This document shows positions 3,729 to 60,567 of a stretch of DNA of 64,000 nt, in pieces (position 1 is the stretch's first letter; every line of letters begins with the position of its first letter). The position numbers and the translations under genes were made by a program. The notes under the pieces were generated by a model. That model made no database searches, was not told the DNA's origin, and was given only the letters and a program-made list of their open reading frames with translations. The stretch covers positions 308-64,307 of the forward strand of contig JAJEEA010000337.1 of assembly GCA_022821235.1 (NCBI GenBank). The letters are read 5' to 3'. This DNA is from Vicinamibacteria bacterium (GTDB lineage: Bacteria; Acidobacteriota; Vicinamibacteria; Vicinamibacterales; UBA8438).

Positions 3729-4802
3729 ATGGGGCGCGCAAGCACAGCCGCGGCGGGCTGCGTCGCCGTGGCGCTCGTGGCAACGGCCCCTGCGGCGCGG
3801 CCGCGGGCGCAAGAGGCAGAGCCGGCGCCCACCTTCGAGCGCGACGTTTCCTGGCCGAAGCCGCTGCCCGACAACTGGCGCCTCGGCATCGTCTGGGCCG
3901 TTGCGGTCGACAGCCGCGACCACGTCTGGGTGCTGCACGCGGCCGACCGCTATCTCGAAGAAATTGCCGACGCCGGCAAGCTTCCGGCGCCGCCGGTGGT
4001 CGAATTCGACCCCGAAGGCAATCTGGTGCAGGCCTGGGGCGGCCGCGATCAGGGCCGGCCGTGGGTGTACAGCATGGAGCCCCACCCCTCCGTCGGCGAG
4101 CACGGCCTGCACGTCGACCACCGCGACAACGTCTGGGTAACCGGCGGCGGGCACCTGGCGCTCAAGTTCACGCGCGCCGGCGAGTTCCTGCTCCAGATCG
4201 GCCGCCTGAACCGCACCGCAGGGAGCAACCACACGCAATACCTGGGGAATCCGTCCGGCGTGGACGTCGATCCGGAGACCAACGAGGTCTACATTGCGGA
4301 CGGCTACCTCAACAAGCGCGTGATCGTGTTCGACGGCGATACCGGTGAGTACGTGCGGCACTGGGGCCGCTACGGCGCGCCGCCGGACGATGCATTCGAA
4401 GCCGGGGAGCGGTTTCCGCGCTTCGGTCATGCCGCGCAGCTATCCGCCGACGGCCTGGTCTACGTCTCCGACCGTGAGCACGGCAGCATCCACGTGCACC
4501 GGCGCGACGGCAGCTTCGTGACCGAGGTCGAGGTGCCGGTGAAGGTGAATTCCGTGGCGTTCTCCGCCGATCCCGGCCAACGCTATCTCTACGCGGGCGG
4601 CATGCGCACAGGCGCCAACGGCCGCTACGACCTGGAGGTGGACGGACGGATCGTGATCCTCCGCCGCAGCGACCTGCAGGTGCTGGGTTCCTTCGAAAGT
4701 GCCGGCCAGCACTTCTTCGACGTCGATTCCCGGGGCAACATCTACACCTGCGGCCGCTTCATGCCCGAGAAGTTCGTCCCGGTCGTGCCGCCGCCCCGCT
4801 AG
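3729..4802 (+). CDS. NHL-repeat / peptidyl-hydroxyglycine-lyase-like beta-propeller protein (secreted)
   Basis: Signal peptide plus repeated propeller-blade motifs (VAVDSRDHVWVL, LHVDHRDNVWVTG, GVDVDPETNEVYIADGYLNKRVIVFD, LSADGLVYVSDREHGSIHV, FDVDSRGNIYT). Confidence 0.65.
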   Translation: MGRASTAAAGCVAVALVATAPAARPRAQEAEPAPTFERDVSWPKPLPDNWRLGIVWAVAVDSRDHVWVLHAADRYLEEIADAGKLPAPPVVEFDPEGNLVQAWGGRDQGRPWVYSMEPHPSVGEHGLHVDHRDNVWVTGGGHLALKFTRAGEFLLQIGRLNRTAGSNHTQYLGNPSGVDVDPETNEVYIADGYLNKRVIVFDGDTGEYVRHWGRYGAPPDDAFEAGERFPRFGHAAQLSADGLVYVSDREHGSIHVHRRDGSFVTEVEVPVKVNSVAFSADPGQRYLYAGGMRTGANGRYDLEVDGRIVILRRSDLQVLGSFESAGQHFFDVDSRGNIYTCGRFMPEKFVPVVPPPR

Positions 4803-4873
4803 GCGGGGGCAACGCGCCAGAGTGTGTGCTACGATTGCGTACACCATCGTATCCACTACAGAAGGCGGTCCAG

Positions 4874-5161
4874 ATGCGATTCGTGAGCGTTCGCGAGCTG
4901 CGGGCTCGTTCGGCGGCCGTGTGGAAGACCCTGGCGCAGGAGAAGGAGCTTGTCGTCACGTCCAACGGCAAGCCGATCGCACTGCTGTCCGCGACGTCGG
5001 AAGAGCGGCTCGAAGAATCGCTGGACGCTGTGCGCCGCGCCCGCGCCCAGGCGGCCGTCGCGGCGATTCAGGACGCTTCCCTGCAGTCCGGGACTCACCG
5101 GATAACGCTGGACAGGATCAACGCTGAAATCGACGCCGTCCGCCGAGACCGCGCCAGATGA
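4874..5161 (+). CDS. type II antitoxin, Phd/YefM-like
   Basis: MRFVSVRELRARSAAVWKTLAQEKELVVTSNGKPIALLSA...; the stop overlaps the PIN start (ATGA at 5158-5161). I chose the internal ATG at 4874 of ORF 4826..5161. Confidence 0.7.
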   Translation: MRFVSVRELRARSAAVWKTLAQEKELVVTSNGKPIALLSATSEERLEESLDAVRRARAQAAVAAIQDASLQSGTHRITLDRINAEIDAVRRDRAR

Positions 5162-5583
5162 ACGTCGTGCTCGACACGAACGTCCTGGTGTCTGGTCTCA
5201 TCACTCCGTTCGGTCCGGCGGCGGATATCATGCGCTTGCTGGCGGCCGGCGCCATTCGGGCCTGCTACGACGCCCGCATACTGGGGGAGTACCGCGAGGT
5301 GCTCGCGCGCCTAGCGTTCGGATTCGCCGCTGAACGGATAGAGGCGCTGCTCGACCAAATCAGGGCCGACGGCCTGCTCGTCACGGCGCGGCCCCTGGCC
5401 ACGCACCTGCCCGACCCGGACGATGAGATGTTCCTGGCAGTCGCGCTCGCGGCAGGCGCAACCTGCCTCGTGACAGGCAATCTCCGCCATTTTCCCGAGG
5501 AGAGCCGGCAAGGCCTGTCCGTTGTATCCCCGCGGCGCTTTCTCGATGTGTACGGCGACGAGTTGGCGTCTTCCGGCGCGTGA
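5158..5583 (+). CDS. PIN-domain toxin
   Basis: MNVVLDTNVLVSGLITPFGP...DPDDEMFLAVALAAGATCLVTGNLRHF shows typical PIN acidic motifs and is translationally coupled to the upstream antitoxin. Confidence 0.8.
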   Translation: MNVVLDTNVLVSGLITPFGPAADIMRLLAAGAIRACYDARILGEYREVLARLAFGFAAERIEALLDQIRADGLLVTARPLATHLPDPDDEMFLAVALAAGATCLVTGNLRHFPEESRQGLSVVSPRRFLDVYGDELASSGA

Positions 5584-53280: not shown

Positions 53281-53814
53281 ATGCGTCCTTTCGAAGCGTC
53301 CCGGACGGCGGCGGCCCGCATGCCGCTGTCGCGGCCGGCCGCCCGTCAGGGGTTGATGGACCGGCGCCGCACGCCGGGTCCGAGCCCCCGCCGGCCGATA
53401 TGGTGACTCGGGATGCCCGGCTCGCGCAAGCCGGAGCCTGACGGCCGGCGTTCCCCTGCTCGCCGGACACCGTCTCGGTTTGCCGGGGCTTCGGCGCGCC
53501 GCGTACAATCCCACCGGCATACGTCGTTACGGTGCGGGGCGAGGAGCTCGTGGTGCAGGCCGCGGTGGCGCCGGGACGGGCAGGGCGCGGGCTGCGAACC
53601 GCCACCGGGCCGTTCTGGCGCCGCGCGGCAGGGGTGGCCGGGTGCCGGGTCCGGCATTGGGCGTCCGCGGAACGAGCGGTCCGCGGAGCGACGCGGTCCA
53701 CGCGTGAGCCCGCGATGGTCGAACCGCAGCCGGGCTCTCGTCACGGGCGCTTGGGAAACTCGGTCCCGTTCGAACGGCGGTGAAGCGCCGTGGCGGGACT
53801 GGCTGGAGGTTGTC

Positions 53815-54681
53815 ATGAGACAGCGACAGACGAGGCGGGCGGTGACGGGGCGCGGTTGGATGCAGGCGATGGTGGTGGCCATCGCATTGGCCGCGGCCGG
53901 GCTCGCGGCGGCGCCGGCCGACGCGCAGGACGGCGGGCGGCTCAACAAGGTGATCGAGGCGCTGGAGGGCGGGGGCGCGGCGATCGCGAACCGCGAGTGG
54001 CGCTTCGTCGACATGGAGCACTCCCCGTTCTCCGGCGAGCGCGTGCAGCGCGTGCTGGCGGAGATGAACGAGGAGCGGGACGCCGACGGGCGGCTCAGCC
54101 TGACCCCCCTCATCCGCATCCCTCAGGACGGCGACGAGGACTTCAAGTGGGCGGTCAAGCAGGTCCTCGACCTCGGCGGGTTCGGCATCATCCTGCCCCA
54201 CGTCGACCGGGGCGAGGAGGCGGTGCGGCTGGTGCAGGCGATGCGCTACCCGCCGGCCCGCGGCTCGTCCGCGCCCGAGCCCCGCGGCGAGCGCGGGTGG
54301 GGGCCGGGCGGCGCGACGCGCCTATGGGGCCTGAACAGCGTCGAGTACCACGCCGTGGCCGACGTGTGGCCGCTCAACCCCGACGGCGAGCTCTTCGCGG
54401 TGGCGATGATCGAGTCGCAGGAGGCGGTCGACAACATCCAGGACATCCTGGCCGCCCCGGTCAGCGCCATCCTGGTCGTGCCCGGCGACATGGCCATCGA
54501 CCTCGGCCTCGGGCCCAACCCGCCCGACCGGAACCACCCCGAGGTAGAAGCCGCGTTCGACACCGTGCTCGAGGCCTGCCAGGCTCAGGACCGGGTGATC
54601 TGCGGCATCGGCGACGGCGCGAGCCGCCTGCAGCAGCGCCTCGACGAGGGCTGGCGCTTCGTGTTGCCGCTCGGCGGGTAG
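53815..54681 (+). CDS. HpcH/HpaI-family aldolase-fold protein with an N-terminal signal peptide
   Basis: Contains FVDMEHSPF, LIRIPQ, VLDLGGFGIILPHV, MRYPPARG...RG, MIESQEAVDN, VPGDMAIDLGL and HPEV. The N-terminus is MQAMVVAIALAAAGLAAAPADAQD. GGAGG lies upstream of the ATG at 53815. Confidence 0.8.
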   Translation: MRQRQTRRAVTGRGWMQAMVVAIALAAAGLAAAPADAQDGGRLNKVIEALEGGGAAIANREWRFVDMEHSPFSGERVQRVLAEMNEERDADGRLSLTPLIRIPQDGDEDFKWAVKQVLDLGGFGIILPHVDRGEEAVRLVQAMRYPPARGSSAPEPRGERGWGPGGATRLWGLNSVEYHAVADVWPLNPDGELFAVAMIESQEAVDNIQDILAAPVSAILVVPGDMAIDLGLGPNPPDRNHPEVEAAFDTVLEACQAQDRVICGIGDGASRLQQRLDEGWRFVLPLGG

Positions 54682-55096
54682 AGACCGGCACCATGGCGGC
54701 GCAGCCGCGTTCGGCCGGCGGCTGCCGGGAGCGGGCGCGAGAGCAGTGAGCGGTGGGCACTCATGGCCCCGGGACGCAGGCGTCCCGCTTCGCCGCCCGC
54801 CTGGGTTGGGTGGCTGCCAGTGGCTGCCGCCAATCATTGGACTAACCCGCTTCGGGGCGCACGGCAGCATCGCGGGCTCGACGCGTGCCTGCCCGGCGGA
54901 TCGATGGCAGGTGCGTCACGGTCGACGTGAACGGCGCCGGTTGCTCCGGGCGACTGGCACGCCGGCTCGTCGACGTGAAGACGACGAACGGTTGTGCGGT
55001 TCGCCCCCAGACTGCTCTTAATGCTGGCAATGGGTTCGGCGCGAGTCAGGTAGTGGCGGGGGCAGGGAGCGAACCTATTGAAGCGGGAGACTGCTC

Positions 55097-56140
55097 GTGA
55101 CTGACGGCGACGCCCTGCTGGCGCACTTGTCCGGGGACTTCTCCTCGGGTTCGGAGAACGCGGCCACGAAGGCTCTGGCGTACGTCCTGAACAGTTCCGC
55201 CAGCGCCATGGAAGCGCTGGATGACTTGGTGCGGTCGGGCGTGACCGATGTGAACCCTGTTCGCAAGGTACGCACGCAGAGAGTCTATCCGGACGGGGTG
55301 AGACCAGACCTGGTCGGTTTTGAGGACGAGGACGGCAAGAGGCAGCGAGTGTTCGTGGAGGTCAAGTTCTGGGCGGATCTCACGGACAAGCAACCTGTTG
55401 GATACCTCGACAAGTTGCCCGAAAAGGACGGGCCGGCGGTGCTGCTGTTCCTGGTACCCGACGATCGGGTCTGGAAACTGTGGCCCATCTTGCGCGAGCG
55501 ACTGTGCAACGCGCGCAAGCGAATGTCCGACATCGATGCGGAGCGCAAGTGCATGCGAGAAGAGGGCACCGATCGATACCTGATGATCATCGGTTGGACC
55601 AGCCTGCTCGACTGCATAGCGGCGCGTGTACGGGATGCCGGCGAACAAGGTATCGAGGCCGACGTTCGGCAACTGCGGGGACTCGTCCAATACGGCAGTG
55701 ATGGTATTCGAGGCCAGGACGAGGAAGACGATCGCTACCTGCGGCTCATCATCGACTCGGCCACCGACCAGGCCGCCCGTGGCGGTTGGCTGAGCACGAA
55801 GGGTCTGAGGCGCGTACGGAGGAAGGGCCGTTACGGAAGGTTTGTACGGTTTCTGGAGTCGGGAGTCACGCCTTGGTTCGGTATCAACGATGAACTCTAC
55901 AAGAACGTGGGCGAGACACGTCTGTGGCTACGGTTTTCCCCGCCCCCGCCCAAGCCGAAGCGGGGGCTCCTCAACCAAGCGCAGTTCGGCGCCTTGCGCG
56001 AACACTATCAACGAACGCGAGGTGCCGACTACAGCTGGGTTCCGCTCGATTTGAAGCCGGACGTGGAGTTCTCGGTGGTCCTGGACGACGTGTTGGACGA
56101 ACTCCAGCGAGTCTCCGAGGTGTTGAACAGGGTGAAGTAG
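55097..56140 (+). CDS. hypothetical protein with an N-terminal PD-(D/E)xK-nuclease-like motif
   Basis: 347 aa with ...YPDGVRPDLVGFEDEDGKRQRVFVEVKFWA... (a D ... E-x-K arrangement). GC is visibly lower than in the backbone. GTG start. Confidence 0.55.
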   Translation: MTDGDALLAHLSGDFSSGSENAATKALAYVLNSSASAMEALDDLVRSGVTDVNPVRKVRTQRVYPDGVRPDLVGFEDEDGKRQRVFVEVKFWADLTDKQPVGYLDKLPEKDGPAVLLFLVPDDRVWKLWPILRERLCNARKRMSDIDAERKCMREEGTDRYLMIIGWTSLLDCIAARVRDAGEQGIEADVRQLRGLVQYGSDGIRGQDEEDDRYLRLIIDSATDQAARGGWLSTKGLRRVRRKGRYGRFVRFLESGVTPWFGINDELYKNVGETRLWLRFSPPPPKPKRGLLNQAQFGALREHYQRTRGADYSWVPLDLKPDVEFSVVLDDVLDELQRVSEVLNRVK

Positions 56141-56350
56141 TTGCGGCCGCGGCGGACGACGTTCTCCCGAGCTCGGTTGCCCGTCGCACGCGCGCGGCGG
56201 CGGTGAGCGCGTGGCGACCGGGCGTACCGGCACGATTCGACCGAGGCGCGGCGACGTCGGGCGGGGTGCAACGCTTCGTCGAATGCCGCCCGGGACCTTC
56301 GCTACGGACCCTGGGGTTTCGGGAGACGAACGAGCAGCCGATATAACGCC

Positions 56351-57613
56351 ATGGATCCGGTCCGCAACCCGTACAGCCCGGGCGCCGGTGCGCCGCCGCC
56401 GGCGCTGGTGGGCGGCGATGCCGAGCTCGCGACCTGCGACGTGGCCATCCAGCGCTTCGGCTTGGGAAAGCCGGAACGCAGCGTGCTTCTGACGGGACTG
56501 CGGGGTGTCGGCAAGACGGTGCTGCTTCGGGAGTTCGGCCGTTTGGCCGAGGGCCACCGGTGGGTGCATCACGCGGTCGAGATCACGGAAGAGCTCGAGT
56601 TCGTGGAAGAGATGAGCGCCCTGGCGCATGGGGCGCTGCGAGCGCTGTCGCCCGGCAGAATCGTGGTGGACCGCGCGCGCCGGGCCCTTGGCGTGCTGAA
56701 GTCCTTTCAGCTCAAGTGGAAGCTGCCCGATGAAGGTGACGTGGTCATGGGCCTGGATCCGGTCTCGGGTCCGGCCGACTCGGGGTTGCTCGATCGCGAC
56801 CTGGCCGGACTGCTTCTCGAGATTGGCGCGGTGGCGCGGGCGCGCGGCGTCGGGATCCTGGTCACGATCGACGAGGTGCAGAACCTGGCCCGGGAACACC
56901 TCGGCGCCCTGATGGTGGCTCTGCATCGGGTGAGTCAGGAACAGTTGCCGATCATGGTGGCCGCGGCGGGCTTGCCGACGGTTCCCAGACTCGTCGGGGA
57001 AGCCAAGACCTACGCGGAGCGGCTCTTTCACTTCCGGATGATAAACAGCCTGGCGGACGCCGACGCGCGGGCAGCTCTGGCGACGCCGGCGGATGCGGAG
57101 GGAGTCCGTTGGCGCGGGGCGGCGCTCGATCGCGTCCTGGCGGAAACCAGGGGCTATCCCTACTTCATCCAGGAGTTCGGCAAGCACGCCTGGGACTCGG
57201 CGGACGGACCCGACCAGATTACGGCCGACGACGTGGACATCGCCGTGCCACGCGCCACCCGTGAACTCGACGCGGGGTTCTTTCGCGTACGGATCGACCG
57301 GACCAGCCGGGAGGAACAGGCGTTCCTCGCGGTCCTGGGAGGCGCGCCCCACCACGCTGAGGTCGTCCGCACCATCGAGACATGGAGCAATGACGATTCG
57401 TGGATCGGCAAGGCGGTGGCGGACATCAAGGGGTCCACGGGGGGCACAAGGCAGGGCGTGGCGGAGCGGCTCCGCGATTCCCTGATCGCGAAGGGACTCT
57501 GCTACTCGCCGCGGGAGGGGAGAATCGACTTCACCGTGCCGCTCTTCGGCGAGTTCCTGCACCGCCAGGAGGGCAGGGTCGGCGGGATGGAATCGGCGCT
57601 TCCGCCGCCGTGA
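56351..57613 (+). CDS. AAA+ ATPase (Arch_ATPase/ORC-Cdc6-like) with a probable C-terminal winged helix
   Basis: Walker A is LTGLRGVGKT and Walker B is GILVTIDEVQNL. 420 aa. Confidence 0.75.
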   Translation: MDPVRNPYSPGAGAPPPALVGGDAELATCDVAIQRFGLGKPERSVLLTGLRGVGKTVLLREFGRLAEGHRWVHHAVEITEELEFVEEMSALAHGALRALSPGRIVVDRARRALGVLKSFQLKWKLPDEGDVVMGLDPVSGPADSGLLDRDLAGLLLEIGAVARARGVGILVTIDEVQNLAREHLGALMVALHRVSQEQLPIMVAAAGLPTVPRLVGEAKTYAERLFHFRMINSLADADARAALATPADAEGVRWRGAALDRVLAETRGYPYFIQEFGKHAWDSADGPDQITADDVDIAVPRATRELDAGFFRVRIDRTSREEQAFLAVLGGAPHHAEVVRTIETWSNDDSWIGKAVADIKGSTGGTRQGVAERLRDSLIAKGLCYSPREGRIDFTVPLFGEFLHRQEGRVGGMESALPPP

Positions 57614-57646
57614 TCGACGTGGTCAAGGCGGTCACAACGCGCCGGA

Positions 57647-57698
57647 TGAACAGGTCACGTACGGGTACGCTGAAGTCGGAGAATATGCACTCGCCGTC
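57647..57698 (-). repeat. orphan copy of the last ~52 nt of the Uma2 gene at 60586..61155
   Basis: TGAACAGGTCACGTACGGGTACGCTGAAGTCGGAGAATATGCACTCGCCGTC aligns with 60591-60642 at ~88% identity in the same orientation. It translates (minus strand) to ...GECIFSDFSVPVRDLF, against ...GEPVFSDFSVPVRDLFT* in the intact gene. Confidence 0.75.
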
Positions 57699-57779
57699 GT
57701 CGGTTTGGTCTCCCGGGAGGGAGGCGGTCGAACAGGCGTCGCGAGACGGCGGGCCCCCGCGCCAAACGAGGCCGGGGCG

Positions 57780-59051
57780 TCAGGCGGTCAGCAGGCCGGC
57801 CGGAACGACGCCGATGCCGTCGGTGCGCCGGTACGCCTCGCGACCGGTGGTGATGACGGCGGCGTCGAGCAGGTCGGGGCCGAGGCGGTCGGCGAGCCAC
57901 TGGAGGTGCCGGGTGTCGGCGTCGTCGACCGTCGTCGAGAGCTTCACCTCGAGCGCGACGACGCGGCCGTCGCGGCGTTCGACGATGAGGTCGACCTCGT
58001 GCTCGCCGCCGCGGGTCCGGAGGTGTCCGACGCGGGCCTCGTTGGTCTGGGCGTAGGTTCGGACCGAGAGCGTGACCAGCGACTCGAACAGGGCGCCGAG
58101 GAGCGTGCCCTCGCGCGGGACGGGAGGTCCGGCGGGGGCGCCGTCGACCAGGGCTCCAGTGTCGACGCCGAGGAGCTGGGCCGCCAGGGCGGGATCGGCG
58201 AGCTGGTGCACGGGGGCGGCCGCGAGCCGCCGCAGCCGGTTCCGGGTGGGGGCCCAGGCGGGAAGCGGCTCGATGATCCACAGTTGCTCCAGGACGGCCC
58301 GGTAGGGGCGGGTAGTCGTTTTCGCCGGCTTGTCGGATTCGCCGGCCGACGCCGCGTCGCGGATCGTCTCGTAGGACGCCGTCGTCGACGATGCGGCGGC
58401 ATAGGCGGCGAGCCACCGGCGCAGCGCGCCGGGGTTCCGCACGGGTCGGCCGAGTTCGACGAACTCCCTGTCCACGATGCGGTCGACATAGCCGTCGAGC
58501 TGGGCGCGAAGCAGGCGGCCGGTGTAGCTCCGCAGCGCCGGGAACCCCGACCGCGTGATCTCTTCCGCGTAGTCGGTCAGCGAGAGGGGGGTGGCGCCGC
58601 CGAGCGCCGGTCTGTCGCCCTGGAGGAGAGCGGCGAGCCGCACCGTGGGCGTGGTGATGGCACGTTCGGCGAGCGCCATCGGACGCATGCGCACGGTGAC
58701 GATGCGGCCGGCGCCGGAGTGCGTCGGCGCGTCGGTCGGCGCGGCGGACCCGGTCAGCAGGAACCGCGACGGGCGGGGGTCGCGGTCGACGGCGCGGCGT
58801 ACGAGGTCCCAGGACGCCGGCAGACGCTGCCACTCGTCGACCAGGATGGGCGGGTCTCCGGTGGTGATGCGCTCCGGCGCGCCGCGGACGATCTCGAGCT
58901 GGCCGGAGTCGTCCAGCCGGTGGACGGTCCGAGCGCGGCGCAGCGCGGTCTCGGTCTTGCCGACGGCCTTGGGGCCTTCCAGGGACACGGCCGGCAGCCC
59001 TTCGAGAAGCGCGTCGAGTTCGGTGTCCACGATCCGCGGCCGGTACTCCAC
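57780..59051 (-). CDS. AAA ATPase with DUF4143-type C-terminal domain (COG1373-like)
   Basis: Walker A is GPKAVGKT and Walker B is PPILVDEWQ. The C-terminal HEVDLIVERRDGRVVALEVKLS is a nuclease-like D...E-x-K. Confidence 0.85.
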   Translation of the reverse strand: MEYRPRIVDTELDALLEGLPAVSLEGPKAVGKTETALRRARTVHRLDDSGQLEIVRGAPERITTGDPPILVDEWQRLPASWDLVRRAVDRDPRPSRFLLTGSAAPTDAPTHSGAGRIVTVRMRPMALAERAITTPTVRLAALLQGDRPALGGATPLSLTDYAEEITRSGFPALRSYTGRLLRAQLDGYVDRIVDREFVELGRPVRNPGALRRWLAAYAAASSTTASYETIRDAASAGESDKPAKTTTRPYRAVLEQLWIIEPLPAWAPTRNRLRRLAAAPVHQLADPALAAQLLGVDTGALVDGAPAGPPVPREGTLLGALFESLVTLSVRTYAQTNEARVGHLRTRGGEHEVDLIVERRDGRVVALEVKLSTTVDDADTRHLQWLADRLGPDLLDAAVITTGREAYRRTDGIGVVPAGLLTA

Positions 59052-59069
59052 GGCCTCTACGATACCAGA

Positions 59070-59124
59070 TGGACGGCGTTTACGCTCCCGATTGGACGGC
59101 GTTTACGCTCCCGATTGGACGGCG
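59070..59124. repeat. 23-bp direct repeat x2.4 (TGGACGGCGTTTACGCTCCCGAT), followed by a 7-bp-stem palindrome
   Basis: 59070-59092 is identical to 59093-59115, with a partial third copy at 59116-59124. The palindrome CTGCATG-CTGAT-CATGCAG follows at 59125-59143. The repeats lie 19-90 nt upstream of the ATPase start at 59051. Confidence 0.85.
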
Positions 59125-59235
59125 CTGCATGCTGATCATGCAGGTGGCGCGGCCGCCAGGGCATCGAGCTTGCCGAGCGCCGGCGACCGGCCTGATCGTC
59201 GCGCGATCCGTTCGGGTTCGGGCGGCGGCTGGCGG

Positions 59236-60567
59236 TCAGCCGGCACTCCCCTCGAGCGGCAGCGGGCCGGTGGCGTGGCCCAGCGACTCGACCGGTACGC
59301 CAAGCCGGTCGAGCAGCGAGAGGTGCAGGTTGGCGAGGGGCGTATCGGCGGGGTAGCGCACGTGGCGCCCGCCCGGGCCCGCCCCGCCGCCGGCGAGCAG
59401 CACCGGCAGATTGTCCGAGGCGTGGGCGTTGCTGTCGGCCATGCCCGCGCCGTAGACGATCATCGAGTGGTCGAGCAGCGAGCCGTCGCCGTCGGGGGTC
59501 TCGCGCAGCCGCTCGAGGAAGCCGGCGAAGAGCTGCATGTGGTACAGGTTGATCTTCGTCAGCTTGGCCAGCTTCTCGGGGTCGCGCTGGTGGTGCGAGA
59601 TGGGGTGGTGGGCGTCGGGCACCCCGATCTCGGCGTAGGTCCGGCCGGTCAGCTCGCGCCCCAGCATGAAGGTGCCGACCCGCGTGAGGTCGGTCTCGAA
59701 GGCCAGCGCCAGCAGGTCGAACATCAGCTTCGCGTGCTCGCCGAAGGTGTCGGGAACGCCCTCCGGCTGGGCCACCACCGGCAGGTCGCGGTCGGCCTGC
59801 GCCTCCGCCGTCTGGATTCTCCGCTCGACGTCGCGCACCGCGTTCAGGTACTGGTCGAGCTTGAGGTTGTCGCTCGATCCCAGCCCGCGGGCGAGGTCGC
59901 GGGCGCGCTCGCGCACCGAGTCGAGGAGGCTCGCGTCCTTGCGGCGCCGGGCCCGGCGGACGCCGGCGTCGGTGCTGCCGGCGTCGCCGAACAGGCGCTC
60001 GAACACGATGCGCGGGTTGTTCTCCATCGGCAGCGGGGTCGTCTCGTCGGCCCACGCGATGGTGTTGGTGTAGGCGCAACTGAAGCCGAGGCCGCACGAG
60101 CCCGCGAAGTCGCGGCCGTCGATGGCCAGCTCGAGGGTCGCGAGCTGGGTCTCGCGGCCGAGGACGCGGCCCGCGATCTGGTCCATCGACACGCTGGCGA
60201 GGACGTCGGCCCCGTCCTCCCGCTTCGCGGGCACCCCGGTCAGGAACCGCGTCGACGCCCGCGGATGCGGTCCCGGCCCGGGCGCGCCGTGCATGCCCGA
60301 CAGCACCTGCACGTGGCGGCGCAGGGGCTCCAGAGGTTGCAGGATGGCGGGGAAGTCGAAGGCGGCGCCCTCGGCCGCCGGCACCCAGTGCTCCATCATC
60401 ATGCCGTTCGGCACGTACACCACGCCGAGCCGGCGTACCGGGCGCGCCGCGGTGTTGCGGAGCGCCGCGAACGCCGGGACCATGCCGTCGAGCAACGGCA
60501 GGGCGAGCGACGCGCCGAGCCCGCGCAGCACCGTCCGCCGCGGCAACGCCTTTCGGGTCAGGAACAT
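59236..60567 (-). CDS. DUF1552-family protein (TAT signal)
   Basis: MFLTRKALPRRTVLRGLGASLALPLLDGMVPAF...GVVYVPNG... is the characteristic DUF1552 N-terminus as I remember it. 443 aa. Confidence 0.8.
   Translation of the reverse strand: MFLTRKALPRRTVLRGLGASLALPLLDGMVPAFAALRNTAARPVRRLGVVYVPNGMMMEHWVPAAEGAAFDFPAILQPLEPLRRHVQVLSGMHGAPGPGPHPRASTRFLTGVPAKREDGADVLASVSMDQIAGRVLGRETQLATLELAIDGRDFAGSCGLGFSCAYTNTIAWADETTPLPMENNPRIVFERLFGDAGSTDAGVRRARRRKDASLLDSVRERARDLARGLGSSDNLKLDQYLNAVRDVERRIQTAEAQADRDLPVVAQPEGVPDTFGEHAKLMFDLLALAFETDLTRVGTFMLGRELTGRTYAEIGVPDAHHPISHHQRDPEKLAKLTKINLYHMQLFAGFLERLRETPDGDGSLLDHSMIVYGAGMADSNAHASDNLPVLLAGGGAGPGGRHVRYPADTPLANLHLSLLDRLGVPVESLGHATGPLPLEGSAG

Follow-up and report, generated by a model that had tools for sequence, protein, structure and literature searches.

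The 64,000-nucleotide stretch analysed here (hereafter the window) comes from a Vicinamibacteria bacterium (assembly GCA_022821235.1, contig JAJEEA010000337.1; its genome was designated G000) and contains three consecutive genes, here termed genes 1, 2 and 3, which encode a 347-aa protein and two ATPases, respectively. A preliminary description, made from the nucleotide sequence of the window, had characterized them as a defence-island-like cluster that combines a nuclease with an NTPase, as do many phage-defence systems. Comparative analysis revealed that, as a "system", this three-gene cluster is not real. The locus is probably a recombination hotspot with three functionally independent genes, in which gene 1 would represent a stand-alone nuclease cassette of the genetic-conflict type.

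A swappable cassette between conserved genes

Gene 1 is a swappable cassette, which comes and goes between close relatives. The organization of the locus was compared in 12 syntenic genomes, i.e. that of the window, those of the loci L001, L002 and L047, and eight further genomes of the genus from which orthologous loci were fetched (loci of relatives are designated by L numbers). The resulting map is XDH - Fer2 - HpcH - [gene 1] - gene 2 - [gene 3] - DUF1552 - [Uma2] - hydrolase. The upstream flank encodes a xanthine-dehydrogenase-type molybdenum subunit (XDH), a 2Fe-2S subunit (Fer2) and an HpcH aldolase, and the downstream flank a DUF1552 protein, a Uma2 nuclease-like protein and an alpha/beta hydrolase. 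The nearest relatives of these flanks (88–96% nucleotide identity) belong to Vicinamibacterales (Acidobacteriota).

Nucleotide homology of the window to all 11 syntenic relatives ends at positions 54681–54697 (at 54681 in 8 of the 11) and resumes, in 10 of them, at 56313–56351 with the start of gene 2. In the seven relatives that lack gene 1, the slot delimited in this way holds just 96–450 bp of unrelated DNA. In a metagenome contig of X4 (record 25), position 54681 is joined to 56350 with ~361 other letters in between; a contig in X3 has the same 54681–56350 joint, i.e. the form without gene 1; and a contig in X2 carries a copy of gene 1 diverged by ~17% beside a gene 2 diverged by ~5%. Another joint, skipping 54677–57766 (genes 1 and 2), was seen in a single X3 contig whose shorter side spans 33 letters, and was not relied on.

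Among the carriers, the gene 1 proteins share 57–77% identity, compared with 94–98% for XDH, 93–97% for HpcH and 83–93% for gene 2. Nei-Gojobori estimates of synonymous divergence (dS) and of the ratio of non-synonymous to synonymous divergence (dN/dS) were 0.28–1.12 and 0.24–0.44 for gene 1, 0.08–0.26 and 0.09–0.16 for XDH, 0.15–0.30 and 0.10–0.19 for HpcH, 0.11–0.63 and 0.10–0.21 for gene 2, and 0.23–0.37 and 0.09–0.22 for gene 3. Since both values obtained for gene 1 exceed those of the flanks, its alleles appear to be older than the host genomes and less constrained. The GC content at third codon positions (GC3) of all five gene 1 alleles is 0.71–0.79, against 0.97–0.99 in the XDH backbone. 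The gene 2 of the window is nearest to that of L081, a relative without gene 1 (dS 0.11), whereas its dS relative to the gene 1 carriers is 0.47–0.52. Because the lowest gene 2 dS is to a relative that lacks gene 1, the histories of genes 1 and 2 differ, and a breakpoint separates the two.

The preliminary description had also mentioned ~400 bp of non-coding DNA in front of gene 1. This spacer is indeed present (415 bp) and is conserved in no relative. It was searched for a remnant of c2 (a small gene that accompanies many gene 1 relatives; see below) or of an N-terminal extension domain carried by some of them, and none was found. Rfam analysis of the region 54000–59500 gave no match at E≤0.1, and a repeat search of 54400–56700 gave short two-copy matches only, none of which flanks the cassette. 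A promoter/terminator scan yielded no promoter-like (sigma-70-like) site and two terminator-like sites, both within genes, with 1.5 expected.

Distribution of the three genes

The co-occurrence check came out against the nuclease and the NTPase as parts of one system. Gene 2 is present in 12/12 syntenic genomes (near full length in 11, as a fragment in one) and is a resident gene of the locus in the genus, kept with or without gene 1. Gene 1 was found in 5/12 (four full-length copies and a truncated one in L047, comprising residues 7–199 only), while gene 3 is intact in seven genomes, split in one, reduced to a 40-aa remnant in one and absent from three. Four genomes of 94–100% completeness (G001, G002, G003 and G017) contain gene 2 at 91–95% identity and no match to gene 1 anywhere in the genome.

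The genomic relatives of gene 1 numbered 344, of which the best 80 loci were fetched. A gene 2 match was present in only three of these 80 loci (L001, L002, where it is a C-terminal fragment, and L047), all of them syntenic Vicinamibacterales. In a set of 41 related genomes, which gave 40 rows of gene 1 matches, a gene 2 match adjoins only the copies located in the slot (G000, G016, G013, G015 and G014); comparison of both match tables showed that for gene 1 copies outside the slot the nearest gene 2 match is 59 kb away. Gene 1 was found in 16 of the 41 genomes and not found in 7 of the 21 that belong to the same genus. Individual genomes have between 0 and 5 matches, some of which adjoin one another as tandem copies in G006, G013, G010, G005 and G008. 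Neither the co-occurrence nor the co-inheritance expected of members of a multi-gene defence system was thus found for genes 1 and 2.

Gene 1 encodes a predicted PD-(D/E)xK nuclease

The product of gene 1 is very probably a PD-(D/E)xK nuclease, as judged from its conserved motif and structural model; the preliminary assignment to this superfamily is therefore supported. The string quoted in that description, RPDLVGFEDEDGKRQRVFVEVKFWA, was found in the gene 1 translation, as were the other quoted motifs in their respective translations (GLRGVGKT and ILVTIDEVQ in gene 2, D...ExK in gene 3).

No match to the gene 1 protein was detected in Pfam, PADLOC (v2.0.0) or NCBIfam at E≤1, and a word-indexed search returned 73 clusters, none of which carries a Pfam domain. 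Exhaustive profile searching, in which clusters at 50% identity were counted as representatives, revealed 2,956 representatives at E≤1e-3, of which 1,261 reached E≤1e-30. The gene 1 family is therefore large, though it has no curated model. Its near-invariant signature is E...D...ExK...Q. Residues E20, P70-D71, E88, K90 and Q99, together with other positions, are invariant in 31 aligned members, and in a set of 147 sequences (the protein of the window and 146 representatives) conservation was observed for E20 in 144, D71 in 146, E88 in 146, K90 in 145, Q99 in 146 and W167 in all 147. Recurrent sub-threshold Pfam matches of the 31 members were confined to VRR_NUC (PF08774; 9/31, best E 9.6e-4) and PDDEXK_4 (PF14281; 4/31, best E 0.006), the nearest Pfam families; gene 1 of the window itself matched neither at E≤1, and so did not reach their curated cut-offs. 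Some of its ESM Atlas neighbours carry PDDEXK_4. The family profile gave only a chance-level match (E 0.043) to the sequences of the Protein Data Bank (PDB).

The AlphaFold2 model of the 347-aa protein (mean pLDDT 87.1) supports a restriction-endonuclease-like fold of the N-terminal domain. The predicted elements are helix 19–33, strands 57–59, 72–75 and 83–89, helix 101–106 and strand 114–120, an order that fits the alpha-beta-beta-beta-alpha-beta core fold, and the catalytic residues are placed on helix 19–33 and on strands 72–75 and 83–89, which is the classical layout of the PD-(D/E)xK signature. VIA-align matched residues ~5–190 with at least 15 restriction-type nucleases at Z 5.1–7.5, values of middling strength, considering that Z under 8 may mean a common arrangement only. 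The nearest folds were those of the R.BspD6I small subunit (2p14), N.BspD6I (2ewf) and AF1548 (1y88), with Z 6.6–7.5 over 109–136 residues; EcoT38I, NucS, FokI, LlaBIII, Can2, MspJI and BglII were also among the matches. Because the Z values are middling, the case for a nuclease rests on the fold theme and the motif together: gene 1 shares with the superfamily the helix-strand order of the core and the E...(P)D...ExK motif followed by a conserved Q.

Gene 1 differs from the superfamily in its additional ~140-aa C-terminal alpha/beta domain (residues ~207–347), whose kinship is undecided. This domain resembles several unrelated alpha/beta sandwiches (Z ~7), the best matches being mixed (1yb3 at Z 7.7, the C-terminal domains of Med17 and MotA, frataxin and secretion chaperones), and when compared alone with Pfam it gave nothing. 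It is doubled in some members of 505–519 aa (P0055, P0058, P0064 and P0074, with P0196 and P0216 also listed among the length variants). Members of 682–726 aa, about double the usual length, contain three matched stretches, and others (510–527 aa, P0019–P0026) begin with a separate N-terminal domain of ~150 aa, for which an origin as a fused c2 was considered and rejected (no HMM match). The same ~150–165-aa extension, without a match in Pfam, precedes gene 1 in the syntenic relatives L047 (L047:5503-6000) and L088 (L088:5986-6483); the copy in the window lacks it.

Mrr and McrBC are solitary, modification-dependent (Type IV) restriction nucleases. Gene 1 shows a functional analogy to such enzymes in that no methyltransferase partner was seen alongside it at this locus and its presence varies by strain. 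MspJI (4f0p) was found in both structure searches, AspBHI and McrC only among the weak Foldseek matches. In contrast to the Type IV nucleases, no homology of gene 1 to their DNA-recognition domains was detected.

The c2 partner and the genomic neighbourhood of the gene 1 family

ORF clustering of 81 loci (the 80 fetched and the window) revealed that the commonest partner of the gene 1 family is c2, a conserved gene of ~125 aa (L003–L050 and other loci, e.g. L010:5614-5982). It is located within 800 bp upstream of the gene 1 relative in 38/81 loci, sharing its strand in 37 of the 38 and typically 12–40 bp away; one further locus has a c2 copy 4 kb off. The c2 protein carries a APWREAVTYRDTWPHEYVL-type motif and is conserved across phyla, with a mean column identity of 60%, compared to 41% for gene 1. 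It has no match in Pfam and no usable match in the ESM Atlas, and its structural model (pLDDT 78.8) gave nothing at Z≥5 in VIA-align (best 3.7) or at E≤0.001 in Foldseek. The gene 1 family and its c2 partner are a genuine lead outside the curated libraries, yet within a well-known superfamily.

The window and its syntenic kin lack c2. In a tree of the 81 gene 1 proteins (quick search, SH-aLRT supports), in which phyla are intermixed, the window falls within a clade rich in c2 (34/49 rows), inside a four-row Vicinamibacterales subclade without it. The state of c2 changes at least 13 times on this tree; moreover, c2 fragments are left in L015, L020, L024, L031 and L050, and split copies are present in L016, L033, L039 and L045. 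In view of these changes and leftover fragments, c2 is unlikely to be an indispensable antidote.

The sole trace of c2 in the genome of the window is a lone C-terminal fragment (L089:3181-3414, minus strand) on another contig, C396 (L089:2004-7762). Immediately downstream of this fragment is an McrBC-like ORF, and the genes clustered with them code for a DUF5655 protein, a PIN protein and a BrxC/D-like ATPase; here, away from the window, the genome seems to have a genuine defence cluster. That the ORF following the fragment (386 aa) might be a hidden gene 1 relative was considered and rejected (hhalign probability 0.8%; the ORF is McrBC-like).

Once the three syntenic loci and three near-duplicates had been removed, 74 loci remained, and the 145 genes outside the family that immediately adjoin the gene 1 relatives in them were annotated. 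A Pfam family was assigned to 101 of them and none to 44; AAA_16, the domain of gene 2, was found in 0/145. Twelve neighbours encode an integrase, a resolvase, a transposase or, in the case of a group II intron, a reverse transcriptase (RT). Matches to PADLOC at E≤1e-10 were obtained for 25 neighbours, nine of which were judged generic (three oxidoreductases, two aminotransferases, two methyltransferases, one ABC ATPase and one intron RT). The 16 credible defence-type neighbours are IetS, MTase_II, NsnB (two), HEC-02A, RmrA, PDC-S03 (four), PDC-S11, SoFic (two), PD-T4-3, Type IIG restriction-modification (RM) and LeoA; it is the Uma2 neighbours that match PDC-S03. The earlier characterization of the segment as defence-island-like thus holds in part: within the genus, this is a variable spot rich in conflict genes, while the enrichment in defence genes (~16/145 of defence type, counted without a control set) is suggestive.

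The distribution of the family over phyla is patchy. A scan of viral contigs revealed one locus, carrying a c2–gene 1 pair, whose c2-like ORF and four neighbouring ORFs have no match in Pfam. No gene 1 match was found in plasmid and phage records, a result of little weight, as those collections hold few genomes of the relevant phyla. A second gene 1 paralogue lies beside the first, in divergent or tandem orientation, in L027, L030, L032 (~4372-5506, minus strand), L055, L063, L070, L075 and L078; the paralogue module is bordered by an integrase gene and a resolvase gene in L027 and L032.

Genes 2 and 3

The preliminary description was right in treating the two ATPases as unrelated, since they belong to different Pfam families. 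Gene 2 matches AAA_16 (E 1.4e-11; 45.6 bits, with a cut-off of 32.6) and also AAA_22. Its match to the ORC/Cdc6 model TIGR02928 reached 15.4 bits, compared with a cut-off of 181.3, and is limited to residues 17–66, i.e. the P-loop region. Comparison with PADLOC gave short P-loop-level matches only (best E 0.0063 over 22 residues) and comparison with PDB sequences nothing below E 0.76. The family comprises at least 5,887 clusters at E≤1e-20, named merely "ATP-binding protein" or "AAA family ATPase".

A STAND or ORC/Cdc6-type NTPase combined with a nuclease is a known type of defence system, as in Avs-type systems, and the arrangement of genes 1 and 2, with an AAA_16-type P-loop NTPase adjoining a nuclease gene, recalls them. 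Gene 2 differs from these systems in its small size (420 aa), in having no sensor-repeat domain detectable with Pfam, NCBIfam or PADLOC, and in its nSTAND6 match of only E 0.12; furthermore, the nuclease is encoded by a separate gene that is not co-inherited.

Eight places in the genome of the window match gene 2, i.e. the locus copy and seven paralogues, whose neighbours include PQQ enzymes, a TonB receptor, a histidine kinase, fatty-acid oxidation genes, Uma2 genes and others. On contig C107 (L093:1060-5798) a gene-2-like AAA_16 ATPase gene has a 4-bp overlap with the 5′ end of the gene for a large histidine kinase, and the kinase gene is followed by a LuxR-type response regulator, possibly an operon that ties the gene-2-type ATPase family to signalling.

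Gene 3 encodes a self-contained ATPase–nuclease fusion, as predicted from its domains (AAA_14, E 9.8e-9; DUF4143, E 1.5e-23), and is a common single-gene candidate for defence, of PDC-S01 type. PADLOC profile PDLC04790 (PDC-S01) matches it at E 5.7e-76, with residues 3–421 aligned to positions 11–417 of the 422 in the profile; it thus has the same two-domain architecture over its full length, and nothing sets it apart from the family (AAA_14 plus DUF4143, COG1373). The earlier statement that the segment contains no recognizable named system consequently stands for genes 1 and 2, which have no PADLOC model, and not for gene 3. The motif EVDLIV...ALEVK is located close to the C-terminus of gene 3, and reading it as a nuclease-type D...ExK was correct: DUF4143/COG1373 is listed, in the relevant part of PMC3424549, as a PD-(D/E)XK family of unknown function. 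According to passages of PMC12988326, PDC-S01 is a single-gene candidate identified through "guilt by embedding", consists of an ATPase fused with a PD-(D/E)xK domain and ranks among the commonest predicted defences. In the genome of the window 19 places match gene 3 (18 beyond that of the window) and eight match the Uma2 protein, both families being expanded there, as is that of gene 2; none of the 18 gene 3 paralogues is on the same contig as any of the seven gene 2 paralogues.

Features and base composition of the locus

The coordinates of the features discussed are presented in Table 1. The three reading frames were confirmed exactly where the preliminary description had placed them. Many frames are open in this genome of ~71% GC, and the coding ones were picked by codon-position GC: GC3 of genes 1, 2 and 3 is 0.77, 0.85 and 0.92, respectively, in each case above GC2, the value for gene 3 being at backbone level. 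Analysis of the GC profile showed 0.60–0.69 over 55000–57750 and 0.70–0.76 on either side. The lower GC content noted earlier for gene 1 was borne out (62% vs 71.3% for the genome), low yet no extreme outlier.

Table 1. Coordinates of the cassette, the three genes and associated features in the window.
Feature	Position	Strand	Remarks
Variable slot (cassette)	54682..56312		415-bp spacer, gene 1 and most of the 210-bp spacer; between the HpcH stop and the gene 2 start region
Non-coding spacer, 415 bp	54682..55096		from the HpcH aldolase stop (54681) to the gene 1 start (55097)
Gene 1, 347 aa, predicted PD-(D/E)xK nuclease	55097..56140	+	GTG start; conserved motif and AlphaFold2 model
Gene 1, N-domain (~residues 1–200)	55097-55696	+	
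Gene 1, C-terminal alpha/beta domain (~residues 207–347)	55715-56137	+	
Gene 1, predicted catalytic codons	E20 55154-55156; D71 55307-55309; E88 55358-55360; K90 55364-55366	+	
Gene 2, 420 aa, AAA_16/AAA_22 P-loop ATPase	56351..57613	+	Walker A GLRGVGKT, Walker B ILVTIDEVQ
Gene 3, 423 aa, AAA_14 ATPase fused to DUF4143 (PD-(D/E)xK-type)	57780..59051	-	Pfam and PADLOC
Uma2-family putative nuclease, 189 aa	60586..61155	-	Pfam Uma2 5.1e-37; presence and position vary among relatives

The Uma2 gene is part of the hotspot context and lies outside any system with genes 1–3. The cargo of the hotspot differs among relatives and includes weak AbiEii-like, 2OG-oxygenase-domain and YhgA-like transposase genes. 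In L002 (L002:7525-11511) most of gene 2 has been lost and ~4 kb gained, with a weak AbiEii-like ORF and a 704-aa 2OG-oxygenase-domain ORF; L085 (L085:8471-9622) has a YhgA-like transposase gene between Fer2 and HpcH; and in L001 (L001:8848-9405) a Uma2 gene is located between genes 2 and 3, the latter being split. The longest HpcH aldolase ORF of the window (53413-54681) overlaps the 2Fe-2S gene on the opposite strand; its true start is probably well 3′ of 53413, because the relatives align only from residue ~100–150 on.

Discussion

The presence and absence of gene 1 at one slot, the sharp breakpoints on both sides of it and the excess divergence of its alleles characterize the locus as one in which a single gene comes and goes beside a resident one. 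We consider it probable that this is a hotspot of three independent genes. Gene 1 would then encode a stand-alone, probably active, Mg-dependent DNA endonuclease with a predicted N-terminal PD-(D/E)xK catalytic domain, and its C-terminal alpha/beta domain would probably recognize or regulate the target. The ~1.6-kb gene 1 cassette would occupy a slot between two conserved genes, and its old, divergent alleles may have been gained, swapped and lost between related genomes, the simplest route being homologous recombination through the conserved flanks. The role of gene 1 would lie in genetic conflict, whether defensive or selfish, and it would act alone in this genome, next to gene 2, presumably the independent, resident AAA_16 ATPase of the locus, and to gene 3, a putative self-contained ATPase–nuclease fusion of PDC-S01 type.

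Several observations weigh against this interpretation. In the genus, each of the five gene 1 alleles immediately precedes a gene 2 of the same orientation, which could mean a functional tie in this lineage; we infer that exchange through the conserved flanks accounts for it. The dN/dS of gene 1, being below 1, indicates purifying and not diversifying selection. The cassette has no flanking hallmarks of mobile elements, and a search of the window for tRNA genes found none. Nor is the base composition extreme: 21% of genome-wide long ORFs have GC3≤0.77, so that gene 1 falls into the lowest fifth and is no extreme outlier, in a distribution based on crudely defined stop-to-stop ORFs, some of them probably not genes, which was used for this comparison only. 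The structural matches are middling (best Z 7.5), and Foldseek comparison of the gene 1 model with the PDB gave nothing at E≤0.001. Finally, the annotated neighbours of gene 1 relatives are mostly metabolic or housekeeping, and the defence and mobile neighbours (28/145) were counted without a control set.

The explanation suggested by gene order is a single defence system of genes 1 and 2, possibly joined by gene 3, with the AAA_16 ATPase as sensor or regulator and the PD-(D/E)xK protein as effector. It draws on the adjacency of genes 1 and 2, their common strand and the 210 bp between them, on a GC3 below backbone in both, and above all on the constant position of gene 1 directly upstream of gene 2 in five carriers even though the alleles are 57–77% identical. 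This last point is the strongest that remains, in an explanation which co-occurrence has already largely refuted and which has little probability. Gene 2 is found in 12/12 syntenic genomes against 5/12 for gene 1, four genomes keep it at 91–95% identity without any gene 1 relative, and the two are separated by a recombination breakpoint and have discordant allele histories. Elsewhere in the 41 related genomes no gene 1 copy adjoins a gene 2 match; in the wider family a gene 2 match accompanies 3/80 loci and AAA_16 none of the 145 neighbours, the gene 2 paralogues have no nuclease partner, and the two families are unequal in size (at least 5,887 clusters for gene 2 vs 73 for gene 1 in the same kind of search). 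Least probable of the alternatives is an ordinary housekeeping nuclease of repair or recombination. The PD-(D/E)xK fold, the conserved catalytic residues and the mainly metabolic or housekeeping neighbours in other genomes would suit such a role, but a gene found in 16/41 related genomes and not found in 7/21 of the genus, present or absent at a syntenic site, with 0–5 matches per genome, patchy across phyla and with dS and dN/dS several-fold above those of its flanks, does not behave as one.

Of the explanations that keep gene 1 in a conflict role, a selfish, free-standing homing-type endonuclease or small mobile-element remnant, spreading and decaying without benefit to the host, would account for its presence or absence at one precise, sharply bounded site, the truncated copy in L047 (residues 7–199), the deeply diverged alleles, the several copies within genomes, the 12/145 neighbours with mobility functions and the solitary state of the gene here. 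We nevertheless regard it as unlikely: the cassette has no terminal or direct repeats and the window no tRNA, there is no common target, since the neighbouring genes vary widely between loci, and the family gave one viral-contig locus and none in plasmid and phage records. Moreover, near-invariance extends beyond the catalytic residues to many other positions in 147 distant members, and dN/dS is 0.24–0.44. The association with c2 (within 800 bp upstream in 38/81 loci, same strand in 37, typically 12–40 bp away), its higher conservation (60% vs 41%) and the occurrence of the pair in the sole viral-contig locus would fit a two-gene module of toxin-antitoxin type, in which c2 is the antidote and the gene 1 of the window an orphan toxin. 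This is very unlikely, however, as c2 has been repeatedly lost or broken while gene 1 remained intact, with 13 state changes on the tree, and a lethal nuclease could not persist without its antidote. In the window, all catalytic residues are kept with no c2 in the gap, the lone c2 fragment of the genome being on another contig.

A broader interpretation, which we regard as possible but doubtful, is that the gene 1 family represents the effector of an undescribed anti-phage or anti-plasmid module, widespread in Chloroflexota and Acidobacteriota. Its commoner form would include c2, while solitary forms would be working single-gene variants, with old alleles exchanged at hotspots.

Under the hotspot interpretation favoured here, adjacency at this locus reflects a shared hotspot, not a shared function, and the result prevents a "nuclease plus NTPase" cluster that was recognized from gene order from being recorded as a new defence system. 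At the same time, the analysis brings out a family of ~3,000 representatives at 50% identity, concentrated in phyla that have received little study, which has a clear nuclease signature and a C-terminal domain and is often accompanied by a small partner. Should it prove immune or selfish, a new nuclease module would be added to the conflict-gene repertoire, and the locus would offer a clear natural case of the exchange of old alleles at a single position of the chromosome.

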